From positions 1-63,478 of the IMG/VR virus record IMGVR_UViG_3300049811_000165: 63,478 bases of DNA. One strand, given 5' to 3'. The notes beneath the pieces were generated by a model that searched no databases, was not told where the DNA came from, and saw only the letters and a list, made by a program, of their open reading frames with translations. Position numbers and translations under genes: made by a program. Positions 530 to 11,658 of the stretch are shown here, piece by piece; the first letter of the stretch is position 1, and each line of letters begins with the position of its first letter. This stretch comes from a virus.

Positions 530-994
530 TTACGGAACCGCGCGAGCCAGCACGCACAGGCGCGCCTTGCCGGCCGCGAACGTCGCGGCAGCGGTCGTCA
601 CCTTCAGCGCGATGGCGCGGTCGGTCTCGACAGCCTGCACGGCGTTCAGCACGCGGCCAGCGTTGCGGCTGAAGCCGCCAGCGCGCGCGTCATTGATGCC
701 CGAGGCCCACACCGCGCCGCCGTCGGCCGCAGCCGTCGACAGGTCGGTCTTGCCCGAGTTGAGCAAGCCCAGCGACAGGGCCAGCGTGGGGGTGCCGTTG
801 CTGTCGAGGTCGTCGCAGTCGAGCGTGTAGTCGACCGGAACGTGACCGCCGGGCAGCGGACCGAGTTCGATCGTGTCGTTGATCACGGGCGCGGCCGTGA
901 GGTTGATCTCGTAGTACAGGGCCACGACTTCGCCGCCCTGCGCGATCTTCGACGGGAGCTTGCCCGCCGCGTAGTCACTCTTGATGTTCGCCAT
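530..994 (-). CDS. Putative capsid decoration / capsid-associated structural protein
   Basis: 154-aa ORF directly downstream of the major capsid gene, Ala/Gly/Thr-rich and beta-type in composition. The call is by position only. Confidence 0.4.
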   Translation of the reverse strand: MANIKSDYAAGKLPSKIAQGGEVVALYYEINLTAAPVINDTIELGPLPGGHVPVDYTLDCDDLDSNGTPTLALSLGLLNSGKTDLSTAAADGGAVWASGINDARAGGFSRNAGRVLNAVQAVETDRAIALKVTTAAATFAAGKARLCVLARAVP

Positions 995-1022
995 CTTGAT
1001 CTCCTGGTGAGGTTCGAGGGAG

Positions 1023-1042
1023 GGGCCGGATCACTCCGGCCC
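1023..1042 (-). promoter_or_regulatory. Stable hairpin immediately after the major capsid stop codon
   Basis: GGGCCGGA-tcac-TCCGGCCC gives an 8-bp perfect stem. On the mRNA strand the loop is GUGA (GNRA-type). There is no U-tract, so it looks like an RNA stabiliser or processing element rather than a terminator. Confidence 0.45.
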
Positions 1043-1050
1043 GTCATCCC

Positions 1051-2190
1051 TTAGCCCGGGTTGGCCGCAGCGGTGTCGATCGCGATCGAACCGAAGTCCT
1101 TCTCGACGCCATCGATGCTGAAGCGGGTCTTCTTGACGCCCGCGATCGTGCTGGTCGTGATGACCGCCTGATTGCCGTTGTCGCGCGACTCCTCGTGCCA
1201 GTCGAAGCGCAGGCCGGTGCCCGGCGAGCCGAAGGCCACCACAGCAGCCTGACGCCCCAGGAACAGCGAGCGCGCCACCGCCACCGAGCCGGCGCCGCCG
1301 TCAGTGCGACGGAGGACCGAGCGGTGCTTGTGCAGCACGACGTTGTTGTAGAGGCCCAGCGAGCCCTTGAAGATCGGGTTCGCGCGGCCCTCGGCGCCGG
1401 CAGCCGCCTTCTGGATGTCGAGCCACTGGCCGGTCGTCGCGTTCGTGCGAACGTCGTACTCCTGCCACGGGTGCATCACGAGGACGAAGTGCTCCTCGCC
1501 GTCGATCATCACCGGCTCGATCATCGGGGTGCCCGACGTGCCGCCGCCCATCGTCTCGGCGCGCGCCACGGCGCGGTCGATCAGCGACAGGGACATCTTG
1601 TCGCCCGAGGTGATGGCGCCGAAGGTGCCCGAGCCCGCAGCGATGTAGTGCTCGCTGTCGGGGGCGTAGAAGGCGTTGTTGGCGAAGCCCGCGTAGCCGG
1701 AGCTGTAGGTGTAGTCCTGGTTCGCGAACGAGGCCGCGCCCGAGCCCGACGTGCGGAAGCCGCCCGACAGGTACAGGAAGAACAGCTCGTCGAAGATGCG
1801 AGCCCACCACTCCGACTGACGGGCGCGAGCGATCTTGCGCAGGTCATGGATGGTGCGCTTGCGGGTCATGCGACCGCCAGTGTTGACGCCGCCGCGAGCC
1901 TGATCGATGTACACGTTGTCCGTGTAGAACTTCAGGTCTTCTTCCTTGCCCTCCAGCGTGTTGTCGCCTTCGACCGGCTGCATCTTGAGCTGCATGACGA
2001 GGTCGTAGGTGATCTGGTCGCCAGCGTCGTTTTCGAGCTGGGGCAGCATCTGGATGGGGGTCTGGGCTTCGACACCGACGCCCATGAACTTCTTGTTGAA
2101 GTAGGACTTGCGGCCAACGTCGACCGCCAGGAAGGCCGAGTAACGCTTGACCGCCTTGGCGTCATTGAGACCGATGATGGTCTTGGACAT
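1051..2190 (-). CDS. Major capsid protein (HK97 fold, N4 gp56 / DUF4043-like family)
   Basis: 379 aa. N-terminal block YFNKKFMGVG...GDQITYDLVMQL...EGDNTLEGKEEDLKFYTDNVYIDQARGGV matches the pattern I recall for N4-gp56-type capsid proteins. It lies downstream of the portal and scaffold genes. Confidence 0.85.
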   Translation of the reverse strand: MSKTIIGLNDAKAVKRYSAFLAVDVGRKSYFNKKFMGVGVEAQTPIQMLPQLENDAGDQITYDLVMQLKMQPVEGDNTLEGKEEDLKFYTDNVYIDQARGGVNTGGRMTRKRTIHDLRKIARARQSEWWARIFDELFFLYLSGGFRTSGSGAASFANQDYTYSSGYAGFANNAFYAPDSEHYIAAGSGTFGAITSGDKMSLSLIDRAVARAETMGGGTSGTPMIEPVMIDGEEHFVLVMHPWQEYDVRTNATTGQWLDIQKAAAGAEGRANPIFKGSLGLYNNVVLHKHRSVLRRTDGGAGSVAVARSLFLGRQAAVVAFGSPGTGLRFDWHEESRDNGNQAVITTSTIAGVKKTRFSIDGVEKDFGSIAIDTAAANPG

Positions 2191-2200
2191 GAGTGGTTCT

Positions 2201-2228
2201 CCTGATGAGATTGGGTTCGATCATCAGG
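2201..2228 (-). promoter_or_regulatory. Hairpin in the capsid mRNA leader that overlaps the capsid SD
   Basis: CCTGATGA-N12-TCATCAGG gives an 8-bp perfect stem. On the mRNA the 3' arm runs into ucaucAGGAGaaccacucAUG, so part of the SD lies within the stem. Confidence 0.45.
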
Positions 2229-2306
2229 CACTCTTGCGCCCGTTGTCACCCCCCGTTGTCGAGGGACGAAGAGGATCCTACTACAGCGTGAATCGGTTGG
2301 AGCAAG

Positions 2307-2381
2307 TGGCTGGTCCCCCAGGACTCGAACCTGGACTGCACGGTTTTGGAGACCGGCATCCTGCCATTGGAACAGGGACCA
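2307..2381 (-). tRNA. trnW: tRNA-Trp (anticodon CCA), with encoded 3' CCA
   Basis: Reverse complement: TGGTCCC TG TTCC AATGGCA GGAT G CCGGT CTCCAAA ACCGT GCAGT CCAGG TTCGAGT CCTGG GGGACCA G CCA. It has a 7-bp acceptor stem, a GG in the D-loop and a TTCGAGT T-loop. The anticodon arm is nearly identical to E. coli tRNA-Trp. Confidence 0.9.
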
Positions 2382-2385
2382 GCGG

Positions 2386-2619
2386 TTAGAACGTGGTGGG
2401 CTGCGCGATGCCGCGAATCACGGCCATGAAGCCCTTCTGCAAGTCGGTCGCCCCGATGCTGATCCATCGCTGGTCGAGCGACGGGTTCGAGCTGGTGCGC
2501 AGCTTCTCGACATAGGCGCCGACCTGCTCGGCCAGGGCCTTGCCCTCGTTCATGAGGGCCACCTCCGCCCCGGTGAGCTGACGGTAGCCGGTGATCTTCG
2601 GTTGTACGAACGTGTCCAT
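2386..2619 (-). CDS. acb2: Acb2-like protein (N4 gp49 / Sf6 gp66 family, PF13876-type); putative cyclic-oligonucleotide sponge (anti-CBASS)
   Basis: 77 aa. C-terminus DQRWISIGATDLQKGFMAVIRGIAQPTTF matches the family signature as I recall it (RW..I..T.LQ.GFM...R.IA.P..F). Tyr12 and Lys27 are 15 residues apart, like the ligand-binding Tyr/Lys pair reported for Acb2. Confidence 0.6.
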   Translation of the reverse strand: MDTFVQPKITGYRQLTGAEVALMNEGKALAEQVGAYVEKLRTSSNPSLDQRWISIGATDLQKGFMAVIRGIAQPTTF

Positions 2620-2704
2620 CTTTCCTCCTGTGGTGGTGCGCTGTTAAGCCCTCGCGAGCCGGCCGAGTCGTCCCAGCCCAGTGTTGCCACGGGTCGCGCT
2701 GACC

Positions 2705-2893
2705 CTACCGCAGCACCCCTTCTTTCGCCATCTCGCTCCCGGCGGCCCGGGTCGGCGGGTCAACGCGCACGCCCGGGGGAGCTACCACCCTCAGACGTGC
2801 GCGCTGCCCACTCTTCTCTTCGAGGGTGACCACGGCGTCGCCGATGGACGCCGTCTCCCCCACTCTCAGCTCGATGACGATCGATCGGTTCAT
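2705..2893 (-). CDS. CsrA-fold protein (divergent carbon-storage-regulator homologue)
   Basis: 62 aa. IVIELRVGETASIGDAVVTLEEKSGQRARLRVVAPPGVRVDPP aligns by eye with E. coli CsrA [45 protein letters not shown]. The start overlaps the scaffold stop (TGATG). Confidence 0.55.
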   Translation of the reverse strand: MNRSIVIELRVGETASIGDAVVTLEEKSGQRARLRVVAPPGVRVDPPTRAAGSEMAKEGVLR

Positions 2894-3870
2894 CAGCCGC
2901 GCAGGTACTTAGCCTGACGCTCCTCCGGCATGCGGGCCAGGGCCTTCTCCAGCTCCAGGCCCGACAGGTTGTCGAGGTCCGAGAACTCGTCGGTGCCCAC
3001 CGGCTCGGCCGAGGCCGGCGGCAGGTTGCCCACGCCCTTGAGGGGAACGTCGGGGAGGCGCGCCTTGACGGCCTCCTTCACGCTCTCCTTGGGCGTCTCC
3101 TTGGGCTTGGGCTCGATCGCCTTGCCCTTGGCGAAGCCCAGCGACTCGGCCACCTTCGAGACCTCGGCCAGGACCGCCTTGTGGCCCTCGCGCAGGAACC
3201 ATTCGGCAGGCTTGCTGGCGAACTCCTCCTTGGCGGCCAGGGTCCGCACCTCGCGGTCCCACATGGCCATGAGGGTCGGGTTCTTGTCGTAGTCGACGCC
3301 GTCGGTGGCCTTGAAGTCCTTCTTCACCTGCTCGATCGTCCAGGCGTACTGCGCGCGCTGCACGGCGGCGTTCTGCTCGATCGCGTGGTCGTGGTCGGCC
3401 TTGCGGCGGTCCAGCAGGGCGATCTTGTCGTTCAGGGTGTCGAGCTGGTCCTCGTACTCGTCGGTCGAGATGTCGCCGTCGCGGTGCTTCTGGCGCAGAT
3501 CCTTGCGCTCGTCGAGCAGCGTGCCGCGCTCGGCCTCGTAGTCGCCGACCTCGGGGACGGTGATCAGTGCGGCAGGAGGGGGCTGGAGCGTTGCAGGCTC
3601 CGCCTCACCAGCACCCGCAGCTTCACCCGCAGGAGCGCCGTCTTCTCCGGCAGGCGCAGCCGCCTCGCCACCGGGGTCAGCGCCATCGCCCGCATCCGAT
3701 GCAGGAGCGCCATCTCCCTCGGCAGCCACAGCGCCCGGAGAGCCATCTCCTTCGTCGTCGTCGCCCTCGTCGCCCTCGTTCGCATCAACATGCCCGCCCT
3801 CCTCGACATCGTCCAGAGCTTCCAGCTCCTCGTCCGATAGACCAGCCTTCTCGTCGTCACGCAGTCCCAT
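2893..3870 (-). CDS. Scaffolding protein (putative)
   Basis: 325 aa. It has a very acidic low-complexity N-terminal third, then a charged helical region. It lies between the portal/appendage genes and the capsid gene. Confidence 0.55.
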   Translation of the reverse strand: MGLRDDEKAGLSDEELEALDDVEEGGHVDANEGDEGDDDEGDGSPGAVAAEGDGAPASDAGDGADPGGEAAAPAGEDGAPAGEAAGAGEAEPATLQPPPAALITVPEVGDYEAERGTLLDERKDLRQKHRDGDISTDEYEDQLDTLNDKIALLDRRKADHDHAIEQNAAVQRAQYAWTIEQVKKDFKATDGVDYDKNPTLMAMWDREVRTLAAKEEFASKPAEWFLREGHKAVLAEVSKVAESLGFAKGKAIEPKPKETPKESVKEAVKARLPDVPLKGVGNLPPASAEPVGTDEFSDLDNLSGLELEKALARMPEERQAKYLRG

Positions 3871-3890
3871 TGTTTCCTCCTTGGTTGGGG

Positions 3891-4373
3891 TTACAGCTCG
3901 CCCGCCTCTTCGAGAGCGAGCAGCACGGCCATCACCTCTTCGAGGCCATCGTCGACCGCAGCCTGCAAGGTAGCAGGGGCAGACTTAGTTGGAGCAACCC
4001 GCACAGGTTCTTTCGCCTGCGGCACGAACTGGTAGACCGGCTGGATGACGTTCCCAGCCTGGGTACGATCGTTCCCTGATTGGGTACGATCCTCGATTCG
4101 CGAATCGCGAAGACTCTCGATCTCGACGGTGACCCGCTTATCAAGTGAGGCTTTACTTGCGGGCCGCTTGTTAAACTTACGGGCCGCGTTATTTGAGGAT
4201 CGCCGCGCGCGGGCCTCCTCGATGACGCGCCACTTGTCGAGCACGCGCTCGACCAGATCCCCGCCGCCGCCGTGGTACTCCAGGTCGAGGGTGGGCTGGG
4301 GCGTGACCTCTTGCTCGACGCCGAACAGGCGCCCAGCGAACAGCTTGCCCGCGAAGAGCTGGCCACGGAACAC
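3891..4373 (-). CDS. Hypothetical structural-module protein
   Basis: 160-aa ORF. It carries short internal tandem repeats (FAGKLFAGRLF; DRTQSGN/DRTQAGN, encoded by a 21-bp x2 repeat at 4051-4092). Confidence 0.55.
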   Translation of the reverse strand: MFRGQLFAGKLFAGRLFGVEQEVTPQPTLDLEYHGGGGDLVERVLDKWRVIEEARARRSSNNAARKFNKRPASKASLDKRVTVEIESLRDSRIEDRTQSGNDRTQAGNVIQPVYQFVPQAKEPVRVAPTKSAPATLQAAVDDGLEEVMAVLLALEEAGEL

Positions 4374-5002: not shown

Positions 5003-6361
5003 TTAGGCGAGGTAGCCCCGGTCTTGCTCGGCGGTCAGCGTGAAGGACAGGCCCTTCGAGCGCGAGATGGTGCCCGTGGCCACCACCGGCTTCGCACTGC
5101 CGGCGTTGCCCGCCACGATGGTCACGGCCGCGTCAGTGCCGGCGGTGCGCCCGCCCTGCACGTTGCCGTCGTAGTCGAACGAGAAGGAGATGGCCGCACC
5201 AGTGATGGCCCCCGTGATCGGGTTGCCGTCCTTGTCGTTGACCGTCACCGCGCCGCTCTCGCCGTAGTCGTTGGATGCTCCCGGAAGAGTCGTGAAGTAC
5301 ATGCGGAAGTAGCCCGTGCCGCCCGCCGTGAGGAAGGAGTTGAAGTTGAGCGTACCGGCCGCCGCGTAGGGGTAGGTGCGCTGCACGCTGTTCTGGTCGA
5401 GGAAGACCACGCGGTTCAAGTCCGCCGGCAGCACGCCCTCGATGAACACGCCCTGCGTGGTGTAGAGCGTGTCGCCCACGAAGTAGCAGAGCTGGCCCTC
5501 GGTCTTGCCCGTCACCGAGCCGGCGCCCGCGTCGATGTCGCTGTTCTGGCGCAGCAGGTACTGGACCTTCGTGTAGACCTGCTCCAGCGTCCCGCCGTTG
5601 GCCTGGATGATCTTGCGGAACGGGTACGAGCCCCCGCCGATCGTCTTGTTCTGGTCGGTCCCGTAGTAGGTGACCGTGATCCCGCTGTAGGGCGCGCCGC
5701 TCATGGCCGCGTCGTTGGCGGTGATCTTCAGGTCCGAGCCCACCGAGACGGGCAGCGAGACCTTGTACGCGCCGGTCCCGCTCTCGCCCACGTCGCCCAG
5801 CACTGCGTCGTCGTAGGTGTAGTTCGGCTCGCGGCAGAAGAGCTTGAAGTAGGTGCGGGTGTCGAAGTTGCCGTTGCTCGCGTCACCGAAGACCTGGATC
5901 GCCTCATTGGGCGCGTCGGTGAAGGTGAAGTTGACGGCCGCGCCGCCCGCCGCGCGCTGGTAGTAGAACTGGGCGCCACCAGGGAAGCCTGAGGCGAGCG
6001 CCACGATGCCGACGTACTGGCGATTGAGCACGCCCACTGCGCTGAACTCGGACCAGCCCGCGTCTCGGATCATCTGGCGCGTGGTGTCATCGGCCGGCTT
6101 CCACCCGTTGAACGTGCCGCCCGGATCCTGGCCGAAGATGTACTGGCCCGAGCGAGCGTCCAGGATGTTCATGGGGAACGGGTAGGGCTGGTAGGTCGAC
6201 AGCGTCCACAGGTCGACGAACTTGGCCCACAGCGCGTTGCCCGTGACGCCATCCTTGGCCACGAGGTTGCCCGCCGCCACCAGGGTGAAGGTGCGGGCCG
6301 GGAGGTTGAACGTGATCTCGGTGCCTACGTTCAGGTCATCTGGGTCGATGATCTTGGGCAT
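5003..6361 (-). CDS. Virion structural protein, putative tail appendage component
   Basis: 452-aa ORF, Gly/Thr/Asn-rich and beta-type, co-oriented and tightly packed with 4375..4983 and 6370..8943. Confidence 0.5.
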   Translation of the reverse strand: MPKIIDPDDLNVGTEITFNLPARTFTLVAAGNLVAKDGVTGNALWAKFVDLWTLSTYQPYPFPMNILDARSGQYIFGQDPGGTFNGWKPADDTTRQMIRDAGWSEFSAVGVLNRQYVGIVALASGFPGGAQFYYQRAAGGAAVNFTFTDAPNEAIQVFGDASNGNFDTRTYFKLFCREPNYTYDDAVLGDVGESGTGAYKVSLPVSVGSDLKITANDAAMSGAPYSGITVTYYGTDQNKTIGGGSYPFRKIIQANGGTLEQVYTKVQYLLRQNSDIDAGAGSVTGKTEGQLCYFVGDTLYTTQGVFIEGVLPADLNRVVFLDQNSVQRTYPYAAAGTLNFNSFLTAGGTGYFRMYFTTLPGASNDYGESGAVTVNDKDGNPITGAITGAAISFSFDYDGNVQGGRTAGTDAAVTIVAGNAGSAKPVVATGTISRSKGLSFTLTAEQDRGYLA

Positions 6362-6369
6362 GTCGTCTC

Positions 6370-8943
6370 CTACACGAGGTACGCCCGGTCAGCCACCTGG
6401 GCCACCGGGAGGGAAGCGTTGCTGGTGCCGAGGGCGAGCCCCCGGATGAAGTACGGGATGTAGCCGGCAGCGTAGACCGCGATGTCCACGGTTGGAGTGC
6501 CCTCGTAGTTGAAGGCGTAGGTCGTGCCCCCGCCATCGCGCGAGTCGAGCACGGTCTCGGTGCCGGCCGTCAGGACCACCACGTCGGACCCAGCCACGAG
6601 CCCGGTGAGGGTCAGCGTCGCGGTGTCGAGCGCGTACTGGTACGCCTGGGTCGTGGTCGTGCTGGTGGTGAGCACGTAGACCGAGGTGATCGCCGTCGTG
6701 TTGGTCGTACCCGTGGTGATGCGCAGCTTGAGCTTGAAGCCCTTGAGCGCGTCGATCCCCGTCAGGGCGTTCAGGTCGGTGCCGAGCTGGGCGGCCGTGC
6801 GCTCCGCGCTCCATGCACTGAAGCCGGCGCCGTCGTTCTTGTCGATCTGGAAGGCGTAGGTGTAGTTGCCCGCCGTGCCGCCCGCCATCACGAGCGCCGA
6901 GTTCTGGAAGCCGGCGTGGCCGATCCGGTACTCGGGCATGGTGAAGGTGGCCGTCATGCCGATCGTGGGCATGTACAGGCGGCCAGCGGCAGTGAAGGCC
7001 GCGCCACCCGTGAGCGCCACCTGGGCGGCGGTATCGGTGGTGGGCTCGTTCATGAGCACGCCGATGCGCCCAGCCGTGGTCGAGGTGTGCGAGTCGAACC
7101 AGTGCGAGCCGTAGCACGCGGTCTGCGCCGTCATGGCGTGGGTCATGCCCAGCCCGGCCTGCGACACGTTGAGCATCGGGGTCACTGGCGCGTCGGCGTA
7201 GTCGCCATGCAGGTCGCGCAGCAGGACGCCCTTCGAGCTGTTGTCGCCCGAGTACAGGGTGGTCCGGGTGTTGGCCACGTAGACCCGCTTGACCTCGACG
7301 GTCTGCGCAGCGGCGCCGGCCGCCAGGACCAGGACGGTGCCGGTCTGGTTGGCCGAGCCCAGGCTGAGCTTCGAGGCGTAGGTGCCGATGTTGCGCAGCT
7401 TGATGTTCGCGCAGCCCGCCGCGCCGATGTTCAGGATCGCGTTGTAAGGCTGCTGGTTCGTGAGCCCACCGAAGGTCAGCCCGCTCATCGTGATGTTCAG
7501 GCAGTTGGACGCCAGATCCCACACCTGCATCCCGTTCGTGGTGCCCGTGGCCGCGCTCGGCGTGTCGTGGTAGATCGTCCCGGTGTAGGTCACGTTCGTG
7601 CAAGTGGTCAGGAGATGGCGCCCGCAGCCGATCGTGCAGTCGACGAAGGAGGTGTTGGCCACCCGAGTCAGGGTTGCCGAGCCGGTGGTGGCGTTGCCGC
7701 GCGCCACGCGCGAGGTGGAGTAGGTCCGGGTGAAGGTGAAGCCCGAGATGTCGGTGAGCGACATCACGTAGCGGCCCGAGGCGGCGAGCGTGGCCGAGGT
7801 CCACTTGCAGTCGGTGATCGTCCCGCCCGCGAAGCACAGCGACATGCTCAGGCCGAACTGGGCGTTGGCCGCTTCCTGGCCCACGCACACCCGAGTCAGG
7901 GTCATGGGCTGGGCCACCTCGGATAGCGAGAGCTGGGTCGAGATGCCCACGTCCGTCATGACCACCGAGTACGCCTGCGAGATGGACGGATACCAGTTGA
8001 GCAGGGCGCGGTCGATGTCGATCACGCCACCGCCCGTGGTGGTGAAGTCGTAGCGCGTGGCCAGCGTGGCGTTGGGCAGGGCGTTCGTGCCGCGCGCGGC
8101 CGTGGTGCAGACCGCAGTGAGGATGTTGGGGATGCGGATCTTGCAGCCCGCAGCCGGGACGTAGCCCACCGTGTTCGTGCCGTCCGAGCCGAACCGCAGC
8201 ACGCCAGCGGTCGAGGCCCAGCACACCTTGCCCTGCACCGCGTTGGTCGCAGTCGAGGCAGCGGCCACGAGGGATCCAGCGCACGGGTAGGGCTCGTAGA
8301 CCCCAGAGCCGGGCGCGGTCTCGACCCATACCGCCGGGTAGTATTGGACCGAGCCGTTCGTGGGGAGCTGGTAGGTCGTGGCGCTCGATCCGCTGGTGGA
8401 TCCCACCTCGAACCAGTCGCCCCGCACGCGGAAGGTGCCCAGCCGGTTGCAGTTGATCGTGGCCAGCTCGTCGCCGACCAGCTCGATGAAGCCGGCCACG
8501 TCCGCCCCGGTGGCGCTGGCCGAGATACCGGTCAGGGCTCCAGCCGCGAAGGCGCCGCCCGTGACCTGCTTGACCGTGATGAAGCCGGTCGCAGGCATGG
8601 CCGCCGCTGGCGCAGTGGGGGTCGCGTTGATGGCGCTCTGCACGCGAATGAGCTTGCCGCTCACCCCGCCCTGCGAGATCACTGTGCCATAGGCCGGGAC
8701 GTTGCCACTACCCCCGGTGTAGGCGATCTGCCTCACCTGGGTCGTGTTGATCTCGATGTCACCGCCCTTCGAGGCGTTGATGGTCATCGAGCCCATCGAC
8801 AGGGCTGCGCCACCGCCGACACCGTAGCGGGTGTCCTGGTCGATGGTGAACTTGAAGCCGTTCGTGTCGACCGTGTCACCCCCCGTGCGGGCGGGGGACA
8901 GCGCGTCGACGTTCGTGTTCGCTGAGAGGACGTAGGCGGTCAT
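6370..8943 (-). CDS. Beta-helix tailspike / depolymerase-like protein
   Basis: 857 aa, rich in Thr/Gly/Ala/Asn with recurring short beta-rung-like segments (e.g. NITMSGLTFGG, NIKLRNIGT, VMTDVGIS). This is typical of right-handed parallel beta-helix receptor-binding proteins. Confidence 0.5.
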   Translation of the reverse strand: MTAYVLSANTNVDALSPARTGGDTVDTNGFKFTIDQDTRYGVGGGAALSMGSMTINASKGGDIEINTTQVRQIAYTGGSGNVPAYGTVISQGGVSGKLIRVQSAINATPTAPAAAMPATGFITVKQVTGGAFAAGALTGISASATGADVAGFIELVGDELATINCNRLGTFRVRGDWFEVGSTSGSSATTYQLPTNGSVQYYPAVWVETAPGSGVYEPYPCAGSLVAAASTATNAVQGKVCWASTAGVLRFGSDGTNTVGYVPAAGCKIRIPNILTAVCTTAARGTNALPNATLATRYDFTTTGGGVIDIDRALLNWYPSISQAYSVVMTDVGISTQLSLSEVAQPMTLTRVCVGQEAANAQFGLSMSLCFAGGTITDCKWTSATLAASGRYVMSLTDISGFTFTRTYSTSRVARGNATTGSATLTRVANTSFVDCTIGCGRHLLTTCTNVTYTGTIYHDTPSAATGTTNGMQVWDLASNCLNITMSGLTFGGLTNQQPYNAILNIGAAGCANIKLRNIGTYASKLSLGSANQTGTVLVLAAGAAAQTVEVKRVYVANTRTTLYSGDNSSKGVLLRDLHGDYADAPVTPMLNVSQAGLGMTHAMTAQTACYGSHWFDSHTSTTAGRIGVLMNEPTTDTAAQVALTGGAAFTAAGRLYMPTIGMTATFTMPEYRIGHAGFQNSALVMAGGTAGNYTYAFQIDKNDGAGFSAWSAERTAAQLGTDLNALTGIDALKGFKLKLRITTGTTNTTAITSVYVLTTSTTTTQAYQYALDTATLTLTGLVAGSDVVVLTAGTETVLDSRDGGGTTYAFNYEGTPTVDIAVYAAGYIPYFIRGLALGTSNASLPVAQVADRAYLV

Positions 8944-8946
8944 GGG

Positions 8947-11601
8947 CTAGTTCGGCTTGATCACAGCGGTCATCCGCTTGCCGTCCTTGCCCGTGACCTC
9001 GATGGTCTTGCCTTGCGGCTTCTTGGAGTCGGCGAGCGCCTTGGCCACGTCGGACGTGCTCTGGTCCACCTTGGCGACCGCCTTGGTGACCTCGGCCGCC
9101 GTGTTGGCCACGCTCTCGGTGGTCTGGTCGACGGAAGCGGCCACCGCGTCAACGGTCTGGGCTACCCCAGCCACCGCCTGCGAGGTCTGCTCCATCGCGC
9201 CGGCCACGCCATCCAGGGCGGCGGCCACGCCTGCGGCCACGTCGGTGAGCTGCTGCTGGGTCTGGGCGATCTGGGCCAGCACAGCAGCCAGATCAGGTCC
9301 GACGGCGCCCGGCAAGGGTGCCGAGGAGGCGGCAACACCCGGGGGAACCGGGGCCGTCGGATCCATCACGCCGGCAGCGGCCGGCATACCGCCAGGGGCG
9401 GACATAGGTGCGGGTGGCGCCTGCACGCCTTGAGCGGCCAAGTCGACCTGCTTGTGCTGGTCGGCCTGCGCCATCTGGGCCTGCTCTCCAGGCTGCATGG
9501 GGGTCGTGCCCTCCACGGCCTGCTGCTGCGAGACGTTTTGCAGGTCCATCGCCACCGCATCGCGGGGGATGGCCATGCGGATCTGGTCGGCCTCGGCATC
9601 GGCCTTGTTGGCGGACGCCTCGTCCTTGGCGATCTTGGCCGCTGCTGCGCTCTTCTCCAGCTCGGCAGCCTCCGCAGCGGCAGCCTCGGCCTCAGGGTTC
9701 TTCGGCCCCTCGCCGCGCGCCTCAGCGATCAGCATGCGAACGCGCTCCAGCATCTCCTCTTTGCCCGGGAAGTCGGCCACGTCGATCAGCAGGTCCAGCA
9801 TCGAGATGGCGAACGTCGGGTTGAGCGGGGCGATCTTGGTGATCATCTCGTTCAGGCTCTCGAACATGGCCTGACGCATGGACGCCTTGAAGTCCTGCTC
9901 GTCGACCACGAAGTCCGCGCTCGATGCTGAGATGTCGTTCAGGAAGCGCACGCTGCCATCGGGCTGCTGCTCGGGCTGGTTGATCCTCACCCACTGGAAC
10001 TGGCGCCCCTTGGGGTCCGCGAGGCGGATCACCTTGGGCATGGTGTAGAACTTCTCGGCGTTGCTGAGCTGCTTCTGCCCCGAGATGGACATCGCCAGCC
10101 GGAAGTTGTCGAAGATCCCGCTCGTGGTGAGCGAGCCCTGGTCCTGGCGCGCCGCGATGGCCACGCCCGAGGTGGCATTGGTGCGCCGGCCCAGCAGCTC
10201 ATCGGTCACGCCCGAGCCGGACTGGATGAACTGCCGGTTCATGGTGACCAGCTCGGTCTGCCCTTGCAGCTCCATGTAGTCGCGACGGATGTCGAACTTC
10301 TTCGAGCCGTCCTTCATGACGATCACGCCGTTGGGCTTCGAGACCTCCTCAGCCATGTCGGCCAGGGTGTACTCGCCCTTGTCGTCGAACGCGCCCTGCT
10401 CGGTGATCACTTGGTTCACCGACAGCAGGAACAGCGCCTTGCTCATGCGCTTGTTCAGGTCTTCCTGCGGGTCGCGGATGTTGCGCACCAGCCCATAGGG
10501 CAGGCCATCACGCGAGCGGCGGAAGGCGTAGATCGGGGTGAAGGGGAACTTGTTGTGCTTGAACGGGCTCGGCAGGTCTTCGAGCAGGCAGTCGTCGACG
10601 AAGTACGAGCAGCGCACCATCATGGTCGTGCTCGGCACCACGTAGGAGCGGCCCTCCTCGACAGCGGCCACGTGAGCCCGGCTCTGCGGGTCGAACGTCT
10701 CACCATCGAAGCCGCCGCCGACCAGGGCCTCGACCTTGGCCGGCACCCTGTACCAGCACTCGTAGAGGCGGACGCGCTGACGCGAGGTGAAGGCGCCATT
10801 GACCGCGTCGGACATCACGGAGCGGTGGAAGCTGCGCACCTCACGCGAGTCGAGGCGAGAGCCCAAGTACCACAGGGCTGCGTCATCCTCGGCGGCCAGC
10901 TCCTCCTCGCCCTTGGCTGATCGCTGAAGCTGGGCCTTCTTGTCCGGGAACATGGCGCACGCCACGTCCAGGTCCAGGTCGCGCCAGCGGAACACGTAGC
11001 GCATGCCCTCACTGTCGACCGATCGATCGAGCGAGTCCTGCAAGACGTTGCGCCAGGACTCGGTGCCCGCGTAGAGCACGTCCTTGGTGGCGTCGGGACT
11101 GATCGAGTCCTCCAGCCAGCCCAGGCCAGCGACCACGGCGTCCTTGAACGCCGCGCTGCGCACGTAGGGGACGCGGTTGGCGTCCGAGATGTACTTCATG
11201 ACCTTGGTCTTGACCTCGGCATCGGTGACATCGTCGTCCGTGCGGGGCAAGACCTTCCAGTCGGTGCGGTTGCGCTTCTCGGATCCGATCACCCAGTCGC
11301 AGGTGATCTTGACCTCGTTGTAGACCAGGGGCGCTTGGCCACGGGACTGCACTACCTGGGCGTCCTCCTCTGTCCACTGGAGCCCGTCGTAGAAGTCCTC
11401 GTCGATCGCCATCTGCTGCCGGTTGTCGGCCTGACGGCTGCGCTCCTCGTTGAACCACTCCTTGAGGCGCGAGAGGTGCTTGCGCTCGACATCGCCCATC
11501 TCATCGGGATCCTGAGCAGCGCGCGCCTCCTCCTCAAGGGACGAGGGAAGGCCGAGCTGCTTGCTGCGCCCGGACACGCGCGGGGACTGCTGGATCGCCA
11601 T
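8947..11601 (-). CDS. Portal protein with a long Ala/Gln-rich C-terminal extension
   Basis: 884 aa. The N-terminal region has QQMAIDEDFYDGLQWTEEDAQVVQSRGQAPLVYNEVK, the portal signature D.DFY.G.QW. Its size and position are as in P22/N4-type portals. Confidence 0.85.
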   Translation of the reverse strand: MAIQQSPRVSGRSKQLGLPSSLEEEARAAQDPDEMGDVERKHLSRLKEWFNEERSRQADNRQQMAIDEDFYDGLQWTEEDAQVVQSRGQAPLVYNEVKITCDWVIGSEKRNRTDWKVLPRTDDDVTDAEVKTKVMKYISDANRVPYVRSAAFKDAVVAGLGWLEDSISPDATKDVLYAGTESWRNVLQDSLDRSVDSEGMRYVFRWRDLDLDVACAMFPDKKAQLQRSAKGEEELAAEDDAALWYLGSRLDSREVRSFHRSVMSDAVNGAFTSRQRVRLYECWYRVPAKVEALVGGGFDGETFDPQSRAHVAAVEEGRSYVVPSTTMMVRCSYFVDDCLLEDLPSPFKHNKFPFTPIYAFRRSRDGLPYGLVRNIRDPQEDLNKRMSKALFLLSVNQVITEQGAFDDKGEYTLADMAEEVSKPNGVIVMKDGSKKFDIRRDYMELQGQTELVTMNRQFIQSGSGVTDELLGRRTNATSGVAIAARQDQGSLTTSGIFDNFRLAMSISGQKQLSNAEKFYTMPKVIRLADPKGRQFQWVRINQPEQQPDGSVRFLNDISASSADFVVDEQDFKASMRQAMFESLNEMITKIAPLNPTFAISMLDLLIDVADFPGKEEMLERVRMLIAEARGEGPKNPEAEAAAAEAAELEKSAAAAKIAKDEASANKADAEADQIRMAIPRDAVAMDLQNVSQQQAVEGTTPMQPGEQAQMAQADQHKQVDLAAQGVQAPPAPMSAPGGMPAAAGVMDPTAPVPPGVAASSAPLPGAVGPDLAAVLAQIAQTQQQLTDVAAGVAAALDGVAGAMEQTSQAVAGVAQTVDAVAASVDQTTESVANTAAEVTKAVAKVDQSTSDVAKALADSKKPQGKTIEVTGKDGKRMTAVIKPN

Positions 11602-11608
11602 GCTGCCG

Positions 11609-11643
11609 CCTCTGGTAGATGAACCCCGTCACCGTACCAGAGG
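11609..11643 (-). promoter_or_regulatory. Hairpin in the portal leader that includes the SD-like AGAGG
   Basis: CCTCTGGTA-N17-TACCAGAGG gives a 9-bp perfect stem. On the mRNA the 3' arm is followed by cggcagcAUG, the portal start. Confidence 0.45.
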
Positions 11644-11658
11644 CAGGGGTGGTTGGAG

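Follow-up and report, generated by a model that had tools for sequence, protein, structure and literature searches.

A CsrA-like protein without the canonical arginine in a phage head-gene module, and a candidate operator hairpin in the capsid leader

The window, by which is meant the whole 63,478-nucleotide stretch of viral DNA that was analysed (IMG/VR record IMGVR_UViG_3300049811_000165), harbors a set of head genes on its minus strand. The gene under study, which belongs to PHROG 8397 (2705-2893, minus strand), encodes a CsrA-like protein of 62 residues, MNRSIVIELRVGETASIGDAVVTLEEKSGQRARLRVVAPPGVRVDPPTRAAGSEMAKEGVLR, with a proline, Pro46, at the position of Arg44 in CsrA. It is preceded by the gene for a 325-residue acidic protein (2893-3870, minus strand; PHROG 8246), a homolog of Bcep22 gp52 that is probably a scaffold, as judged from its position and composition only. 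It is followed by the gene for the major capsid protein (1051-2190, minus strand), which is of the N4-gp56 or Phage_capsid_3 type and is the presumed regulated target. In the sequence UGAUG the scaffold-like stop codon overlaps the CsrA-like start codon, base 2893 belonging to both, an arrangement that implies translational coupling of the CsrA-like gene to the scaffold-like gene. The capsid leader contains a small hairpin, here called H1 (2242-2225, minus strand), which is a candidate operator. The window is related only distantly to podophages of the Bcep22 type, with 73-76% nucleotide identity to DC1, BcepIL02 and CSP3 over only a short stretch of the capsid gene (2-3% of a 12-kb query). 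A search for the host through genome contigs returned only two distant MAG matches.

Two further elements are inserted between the CsrA-like and capsid genes in the window. The first is a 77-residue Acb2/Tad1-like open reading frame (2386-2619, minus strand) that matches the hairpin domain PF24729 (E=2.5e-15), the Acb2/Tad1 domain of anti-CBASS and anti-Thoeris cyclic-nucleotide sponges. A 93-residue homolog occupies the same place in the relative L007; in L015 the gene lies upstream of the scaffold-like gene, and it is absent from L008 and L010. This patchy presence suggests an anti-defence cassette that moves in and out of the head module. The second is a tRNA-Trp gene (CCA; 2307-2381, minus strand), located about 65 nt upstream of H1, part of which is 93% identical to its counterparts in the Serratia phages Slocum and Kamaji. 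If this tRNA is processed, the cut would set where the capsid leader begins. The gene order of the window also differs from that of Bcep22, whose portal gene directly precedes the scaffold-like gene: two open reading frames that resemble tail spikes or fibres (6370-8943, 857 residues, and 5003-6361, 452 residues; both minus strand) lie between the putative portal gene and the scaffold-like gene.

The order portal, scaffold-like protein, CsrA-like protein, N4-gp56-type capsid protein and cement protein is conserved in Bcep22, GP4, Skulduggery, Erwinia phage PEp14, Klebsiella phage ZX1, Microcystis phage Mwe-JY25 and Pseudomonas phage Itty13. Its scaffold-like/CsrA-like/capsid segment is kept in Lessievirus, Gervaisevirus, Skulduggeryvirus, Pavtokvirus, Lastavirus, Ittyvirus and a Microcystis phage. 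The same order, with the scaffold stop codon abutting or overlapping the CsrA-like start codon, was found in every metagenomic relative examined, a set of dozens of contigs, and the window gene is placed between scaffold-like and N4-gp56-type capsid genes just as in the PHROG 8397 phages. Phage csrA genes have been treated as morons that interfere with the physiology of the host, and as late as 2025 what they do for the phage itself was said never to have been put to the test; the JC1 and CSP3 papers apply the moron label to this gene (PMC9144972, PMC10269572). Because it holds a fixed, coupled position in the head module of the relatives, the CsrA-like gene is not a moron; it is a fixed part of that module. 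A literature search found no functional study of the PHROG 8397 family. In coliphage PTXU04, small plaques result when a csrA homologue is knocked down (PMC11879866); this homologue may not belong to PHROG 8397, as PTXU04 was not among the matches listed by a tblastn search with the Klebsiella ZX1 homolog.

An earlier note on this DNA, made by a model from the letters alone, had proposed that the N-terminal part of the protein aligns with CsrA strand by strand. This is borne out, as residues 4-44 are colinear with E. coli CsrA, RsmE and Yersinia CsrA, without rearrangement and with matches at VGET, IGD, G..R and AP..V.V. Taken by itself, the protein stays below the thresholds of the curated models, with 14.5 bits against a cutoff of 27 for PF02599 (E=0.035) and 13.1 bits against 73 for the NCBIfam CsrA model NF002469 (E=0.07). 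The PDB chains of CsrA and RsmE match it over residues 4-44 at E=0.02-0.07, and its identity to CsrA is only about 30-35%. The phrog_8397 profile, designated CsrA-like regulator, covers residues 5-56 with E=1.6e-14 and 54.6 bits. Homologs were recovered by tblastn in 64 phage records, many of them already annotated as CsrA-like regulator and including the Burkholderia phages Bcep22, BcepIL02, BcepMigl, DC1 and CSP3, GP4-like Ralstonia phages and Pseudomonas phages. A profile search for relatives gathered at least 1,160 proteins, from which 73 sequences were sampled for the family alignment (A4). The Pfam CsrA model is matched at E<=0.01 by 43 of these 73, and the profile built from them matches RsmE (2jpp) at E=1.1e-8, as well as five more CsrA/RsmA sequences, one of them a truncated CsrA, at E<=4e-5. 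Since 43 relatives match PF02599 and the family profile matches RsmE, the window protein can be taken from these comparisons as a CsrA homolog, yet one outside the curated Pfam and NCBIfam boundary; the homology is sub-threshold for the single sequence and solid at the level of the family. The residues that are invariant in the family (G12, K27, S28, G29, A32 and A38 in window numbering) are all present. The family itself is not new, having already been named CsrA-like regulator in RefSeq phages and in PHROGs.

An AlphaFold2 model of the monomer, obtained from the family alignment, has a pLDDT of 83.6, with residues 1-40 above 89. Strands 2-4 and a C-terminal helix are modelled, and beta1 and beta5 are extended and unpaired, which is what one chain of a strand-swapped dimer should show. 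CsrA is such an interdigitated dimer. When the model was compared with the PDB by Foldseek, the best 14 matches were all CsrA, RsmA or RsmE chains (probability 1.00, query TM 0.55-0.69), with no non-CsrA fold near them. As the family profile, the predicted structure and the Foldseek matches agree, the CsrA-like fold that had been claimed for this protein is supported by the monomer model.

The note had also observed that VDPPT stands where CsrA has VHREE. This reading is correct, for Pro46 lies in an ungapped column of the 73-sequence alignment that is aligned to CsrA Arg44, and truly replaces its equivalent. The column contains R in 32, K in 4, P in 32, T in 3 and H in 2 of the sampled members, and across the family it is either R/K or P/V/T/H/L. 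The 19 closest sequences have an invariant P46 and always an R or K at position 49, the motif of the window clade at this site being xPPx[RK]. Within this close clade at least 18 relatives, at 59-97% identity, have an intact reading frame, and 16 columns including P46 are invariant. A small early alignment had suggested that R49 is the displaced Arg44, shifted by a three-residue PPT insertion; the 73-sequence alignment rejects this, because the intermediates P0120 (ERPNR) and P0058 (ERTAR) carry both R46 and R49.

H1 is composed of a 5' arm CGGGCGC (2242-2236), a loop AAGA (2235-2232) and a 3' arm GUGCCUG (2231-2225). When the capsid leaders are aligned, all relatives show an element of the form GCGC-A-N-N-A-(N)-GUGC that precedes the capsid AUG by 37-55 nt, and the H1 of the window conforms to it in stem, loop and position, with its loop 42 nt before the AUG. 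Among 132 loci with a CsrA-like open reading frame, 120 have H1 within -100 to +720 nt of its stop codon, and several of the 12 loci without it are truncated contigs. The inner stem pairs C-G, G.U and C-G are invariant, and 2-4 outer pairs covary, as in GAAGCGC/GUGCUUC, GACGCGC/GUGCGUC and CAAGCGC/GUGCUUG. Over 68 distinct sequences, 82.4% of cells are paired, against 69.9% in shuffles (0/500), and the covariation score is 0.314, against 0.123 when shuffled (0/500) and at most 0.149 in slid controls. Because the G.U pair is invariant, H1 is strand-specific, which points to an RNA element. In the window it folds with -12.0 kcal/mol (z=-4.0) and occurs once in the 63 kb; a covariance model, the seed of which contained an identical sequence, gives it 22.5 bits (E=0.0016) and the next match 14.9 bits.

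H1 is absent from VT2-Sakai, Vibrio D56 and Microcystis Mae-JY35, which have distant capsid homologs and no CsrA-like gene between scaffold and capsid. No Rfam family matches H1, and an Rfam scan of the window returned tRNA as the only family, with no csrB/rsmZ-like sponge. The AAGA loop is found in all loci of the window xPPx[RK] clade, and the close Arg-bearing relative L047 (ERPNR) has an AGGA loop.

The hairpins over the ribosome-binding sites of the capsid and portal genes, to which the earlier note had drawn attention for their GGA motifs, are indeed present (2228-2201 and 11599-11650, minus strand), the GGA being simply that of the Shine-Dalgarno AGGAG. The portal leader, which belongs to an 884-residue open reading frame (8947-11601, putative portal), folds with -26.9 kcal/mol (z=-3.6), and its 3' arm buries the Shine-Dalgarno sequence AGAGG; as it is without an H1-like element, it is a separate RBS-occluding structure. 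The capsid hairpin that had been placed at 2191-2228 is not a likely binding site, and appears instead to be an RBS-occluding competitor of the conserved H1, which the note had overlooked. In this conformer GAGUG (2233-2229) pairs with CACUC (2195-2191, just before the AUG), together with an inner hairpin (2228-2201, minus strand) between CCUGAUGA (2228-2221) and UCAUCAGG (2208-2201). Some bases of the capsid Shine-Dalgarno sequence AGGAG (2199-2203, minus strand) are hidden in this inner hairpin. That AGGAG lies about 32 nt downstream of the H1 loop and is a possible second CsrA-type site. H1 and the inner hairpin are mutually exclusive because CCUG is common to the 3' arm of the one and the 5' arm of the other. 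The 59-nt leader alone adopts the RBS-occluding fold (-15.8 kcal/mol); when the folded sequence is extended upstream, the form that contains H1 becomes the more stable one (-24.0 versus -18.2 kcal/mol).

In many relatives the loop and 3' arm of H1 are complementary to the segment that separates the Shine-Dalgarno sequence from the AUG, and this segment changes along with the loop (UCC for AGGA, UCUU for AAGA, UUCC for AGGAA). Cognate duplexes between loop and pre-AUG region are more stable than non-cognate ones (-8.1 versus -5.6 kcal/mol; permutation p=2e-4), with a weak signal for the AAGA class. As the window belongs to that class, the model proposed below is not rested on this long-range pairing. 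The pairing nevertheless constrains the loop as well, so that some of the loop variation may be driven by RNA-RNA contacts.

The identity of residue 46 and that of the second loop nucleotide of H1 vary together. In 77 non-redundant protein/loop combinations, a basic residue (R/K) at 46 goes with G at loop nucleotide 2 in 39 cases and with A, U or C in 3, and a non-basic residue goes with G in 5 and with A, U or C in 30. The rule that a basic residue accompanies G and a non-basic one A, U or C is thus kept in 69 of 77 combinations (Fisher p=7e-13, without phylogenetic correction). On a protein tree, which is a noisy neighbor-joining tree of 39 columns, the residue class is implied to have changed about 12 times and the loop class about 13 times. 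Of 28 disjoint nearest pairs with unlike residue classes, 22 show the loop difference that the rule predicts, and when the two traits were simulated independently on the tree, 20,000 runs gave a concordance of at most 64 and never the observed 69 of 77 (p<5e-5). Of the 58 columns of the protein alignment, column 46 shares the most mutual information with loop nucleotide 2, at 0.67 bits (z=12.9, against z=8.9 for the runner-up). The eight exceptions include PEp14 (R, AUGAC) and L063 (P, AGGA). A strict rule, R with GGA and P with AGA, was discarded as too simple, since there is an R/K clade with AGUA and some P46 members have AGGA at a second site. In structures of RsmE complexes, Arg44 does not read G but either touches the backbone of the loop or stacks on the A that opens A(N)GGA (PMC4005645), and the structural logic of the covariation is for this reason not obvious. 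As far as the literature searched and Rfam show, the Arg-less clade, the capsid-leader hairpin and the residue-base covariation have not been described.

The rule is also kept in a second genomic context, that of the F116/USP_18-like phages, in which H1 is found before other genes. A scan that started from the RNA, for CGCGCAAGAGTGCG, found three AAGA hairpins that adjoin CsrA-like open reading frames, and in 3/3 position 46 is non-basic (T, T or L). The F116/USP_18-like Pseudomonas phages (L004 USP_18, L135 Epa33 and a subset of L058-L127) have their CsrA-like gene downstream of the structural genes and away from the capsid gene, and carry two H1 elements. The first is contained in the 3'-terminal coding sequence of the regulator, some 38 nt ahead of the following start codon, and in USP_18 this embedded H1 encodes a conserved EARKSAL motif; the second lies about 400 nt further on, its loop forming the Shine-Dalgarno sequence or start codon of a small gene. 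Separately, a divergent clade (L006, L014-L039; ...EEKSGQRARIRLDFTKPTTVQRV...) has R or K at the Arg44 position, a loop that is always AGUA, a longer stem (GGCC-GCGC/GUGC-A-GCC) and a third loop base unlike that of all other clades.

These associations might have arisen even if H1, although real, were not the target of the protein. H1 could serve as a self-acting RBS switch or thermosensor, an RNase processing site, a ribosome standby site or a DNA promoter or operator, and the link with residue 46 could reflect shared ancestry. The pairing of the loop bases with the pre-AUG region is compatible with this, as is the reliance of the covariation tests on a noisy tree. In the window, moreover, a weak sigma70-like match spans H1 (2220-2249, minus strand), with a -35 hexamer GTGACA (2249-2244), an 18-nt spacer that holds H1, and a -10 hexamer GATGAT (2225-2220), 9 of 12 positions agreeing; it is the only such match within 900-4100. 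Were this promoter active, H1 would not be transcribed. The hexamers are not conserved in relatives, however, which is why the match is kept only as a rival, and an element that works as RNA is favored by the unvarying G.U pair and by the compensatory changes in the outer stem. That column 46 is the best predictor of loop nucleotide 2 among the 58 columns, and that the association recurs in two genomic contexts and exceeds what the simulation yields, also speak for a link between protein and hairpin. We regard a role of H1 apart from the protein as unlikely.

The interpretation toward which we lean, at somewhat better than even chances, is that the protein is a CsrA-type regulator of the head module that acts on capsid translation through H1, its candidate operator, with a re-tuned specificity. 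The CsrA-like protein would be made through translational coupling with the scaffold-like protein, would probably form a homodimer as CsrA does, and would have H1 in the capsid mRNA leader as its one cognate hairpin, so that capsid translation would be set relative to scaffold. Two regulatory outcomes can be envisaged. Binding to the H1 loop, or its stabilisation, may free the Shine-Dalgarno sequence from the RBS-occluding fold and so activate translation, and CsrA is known to activate ymdA by freeing the Shine-Dalgarno sequence. Alternatively, the dimer may bridge H1 and the Shine-Dalgarno sequence 32 nt away and repress translation, much as CsrA represses glgC by bridging sites. In the window clade, the change from Arg to Pro and that from AGGA to AAGA suggest that protein and operator have co-evolved to another specificity.

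For the missing arginine the earlier note had offered two explanations, a dominant-negative heterodimer with host CsrA or an altered RNA specificity. The latter is the better supported, as the candidate hairpin carries AAGA in the window clade and AGGA in relatives that keep the Arg, and the residue covaries with the base. The former belongs to a broader proposal, namely that the protein is a host-directed mimic of CsrA, acting as a dominant-negative partner or competitor of CsrA/RsmA or reprogramming host GGA-containing mRNAs globally. It would draw on the CsrA-like fold and on the interdigitated dimer of CsrA, and it is in keeping with the moron label of the JC1 and CSP3 papers (PMC9144972, PMC10269572) and with the correlation between phage-borne and host csrA that has been described for bona fide homologs (PMC8450108). 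The gene is nevertheless fixed and coupled inside the head module across relatives, and the family occurs in Burkholderia phages, the hosts of which have no csrA on the chromosome (PMC7366521). The protein is no more than 30-35% identical to CsrA, certain residues (K27, S28, G29, A32) are invariants peculiar to the family, and the adjacent hairpin covaries with the protein. A host-directed mimic is consequently judged improbable, and the dominant-negative heterodimer in particular is unlikely and is not supported.

It has similarly to be considered that a protein of head assembly or of the virion, for instance an internal protein that is packaged or a chaperone for scaffold or capsid, has kept a CsrA-like fold without RNA binding. 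The position between the scaffold-like and capsid genes with coupling to the former, the loss of an Arg that is essential for RNA binding by CsrA, and the detection of one peptide from the homolog of JC1 in virions purified on CsCl (PMC9144972) would all be in accord with such a role. Against it, the capsid shell of GP4 consists only of gp2 and gp1 (PMC9698820), many members of the family keep both the Arg and a textbook AGGA hairpin, and a covariation between residue and base is hard to explain without RNA contact; we give this role little likelihood. That the window clade harbors a decaying, functionless CsrA-like remnant, as the replacement of an essential Arg by Pro and the sub-threshold Pfam score could be taken to mean, is very improbable given the intact reading frame in the window and at least 18 close relatives at 59-97% identity, the 16 invariant columns including P46, the retained coupling to the scaffold-like gene, and the AAGA hairpin kept in all loci of the clade.

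The evidence suggests that the protein is a regulator at the core of the head module, served by an operator linked to it in cis on the capsid mRNA, in a widespread podophage family of at least 1,160 proteins. A more far-reaching version of this interpretation, which is possible but falls somewhat short of even chances, is that the family and H1 constitute a natural series of orthogonal protein-RNA pairs in which residue 46 sets loop nucleotide 2, R/K being matched with G, and P, V, T, H or L with A or U, each pair serving its own phage as a capsid/scaffold homeostat. The suggested role as a head-module regulator would, if real, provide a naturally varied residue-nucleotide pair with which to probe the recognition of the first G in GGA by proteins of the CsrA fold, as well as ready-made orthogonal translational regulator/hairpin pairs for synthetic biology.

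The closest relatives of this system are found in Bcep22 (gp54), BcepIL02, DC1, JC1 (gp47) and GP4 (gp04), which have a protein of the same family (42-49% identity) in the same position and the same H1 before the capsid gene. These phages retain the Arg (VPIDR, VPIRR) together with AGGA, whereas the window clade has xPPx[RK] with AAGA, and in the window the Acb2/Tad1-like gene and the tRNA-Trp lie between regulator and H1. With CsrA, RsmA and RsmE (PF02599) the protein has in common its fold (Foldseek TM 0.6-0.7 to 1vpz, 2bti, 2jpp and 5z38) and the motif order VGE, IGD, G..R, AP..V.V. Its candidate target, a hairpin with an A-N-G-A loop upstream of the Shine-Dalgarno sequence, likewise recalls the classic two-site layout of A(N)GGA loop and Shine-Dalgarno sequence. 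It differs in the replacement of Arg44 by Pro, of T5 by Glu and of R6 by Leu, in an invariant KSG..AR motif of its own, in the use of AAGA and not GGA, and apparently in having one dedicated cis-linked target and no regulon. The RsmN protein of P. aeruginosa, plasmid-borne RsmQ and the ICE-borne CsrT are also variants of the CsrA family, some of them on mobile elements, but they keep the Arg and the GGA specificity and act on host regulons. RsmN with R62A, the equivalent of Arg44, still complements some phenotypes, and the Arg is hence not essential in every assay (PMC3791407).

The MS2 coat protein hairpin, T4 RegA and T4 gp32 provide precedents for a phage protein that tunes a phage gene via a hairpin at or near the ribosome-binding site, the proteins involved having unrelated folds, none of them CsrA-like. 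Finally, in the CsrA-FliW-flagellin system of Bacillus subtilis and with FlbT in Caulobacter, a CsrA-fold protein serves the translation of one abundant, self-assembling structural protein, and five members of the phage family give weak matches to the FlbT Pfam model. No FliW-like antagonist was identified here, and a coupling to assembly is speculative. If the proposed action on capsid mRNA is correct, the head-module regulator would represent a viral, re-tunable counterpart of the role that CsrA plays in flagellin homeostasis.
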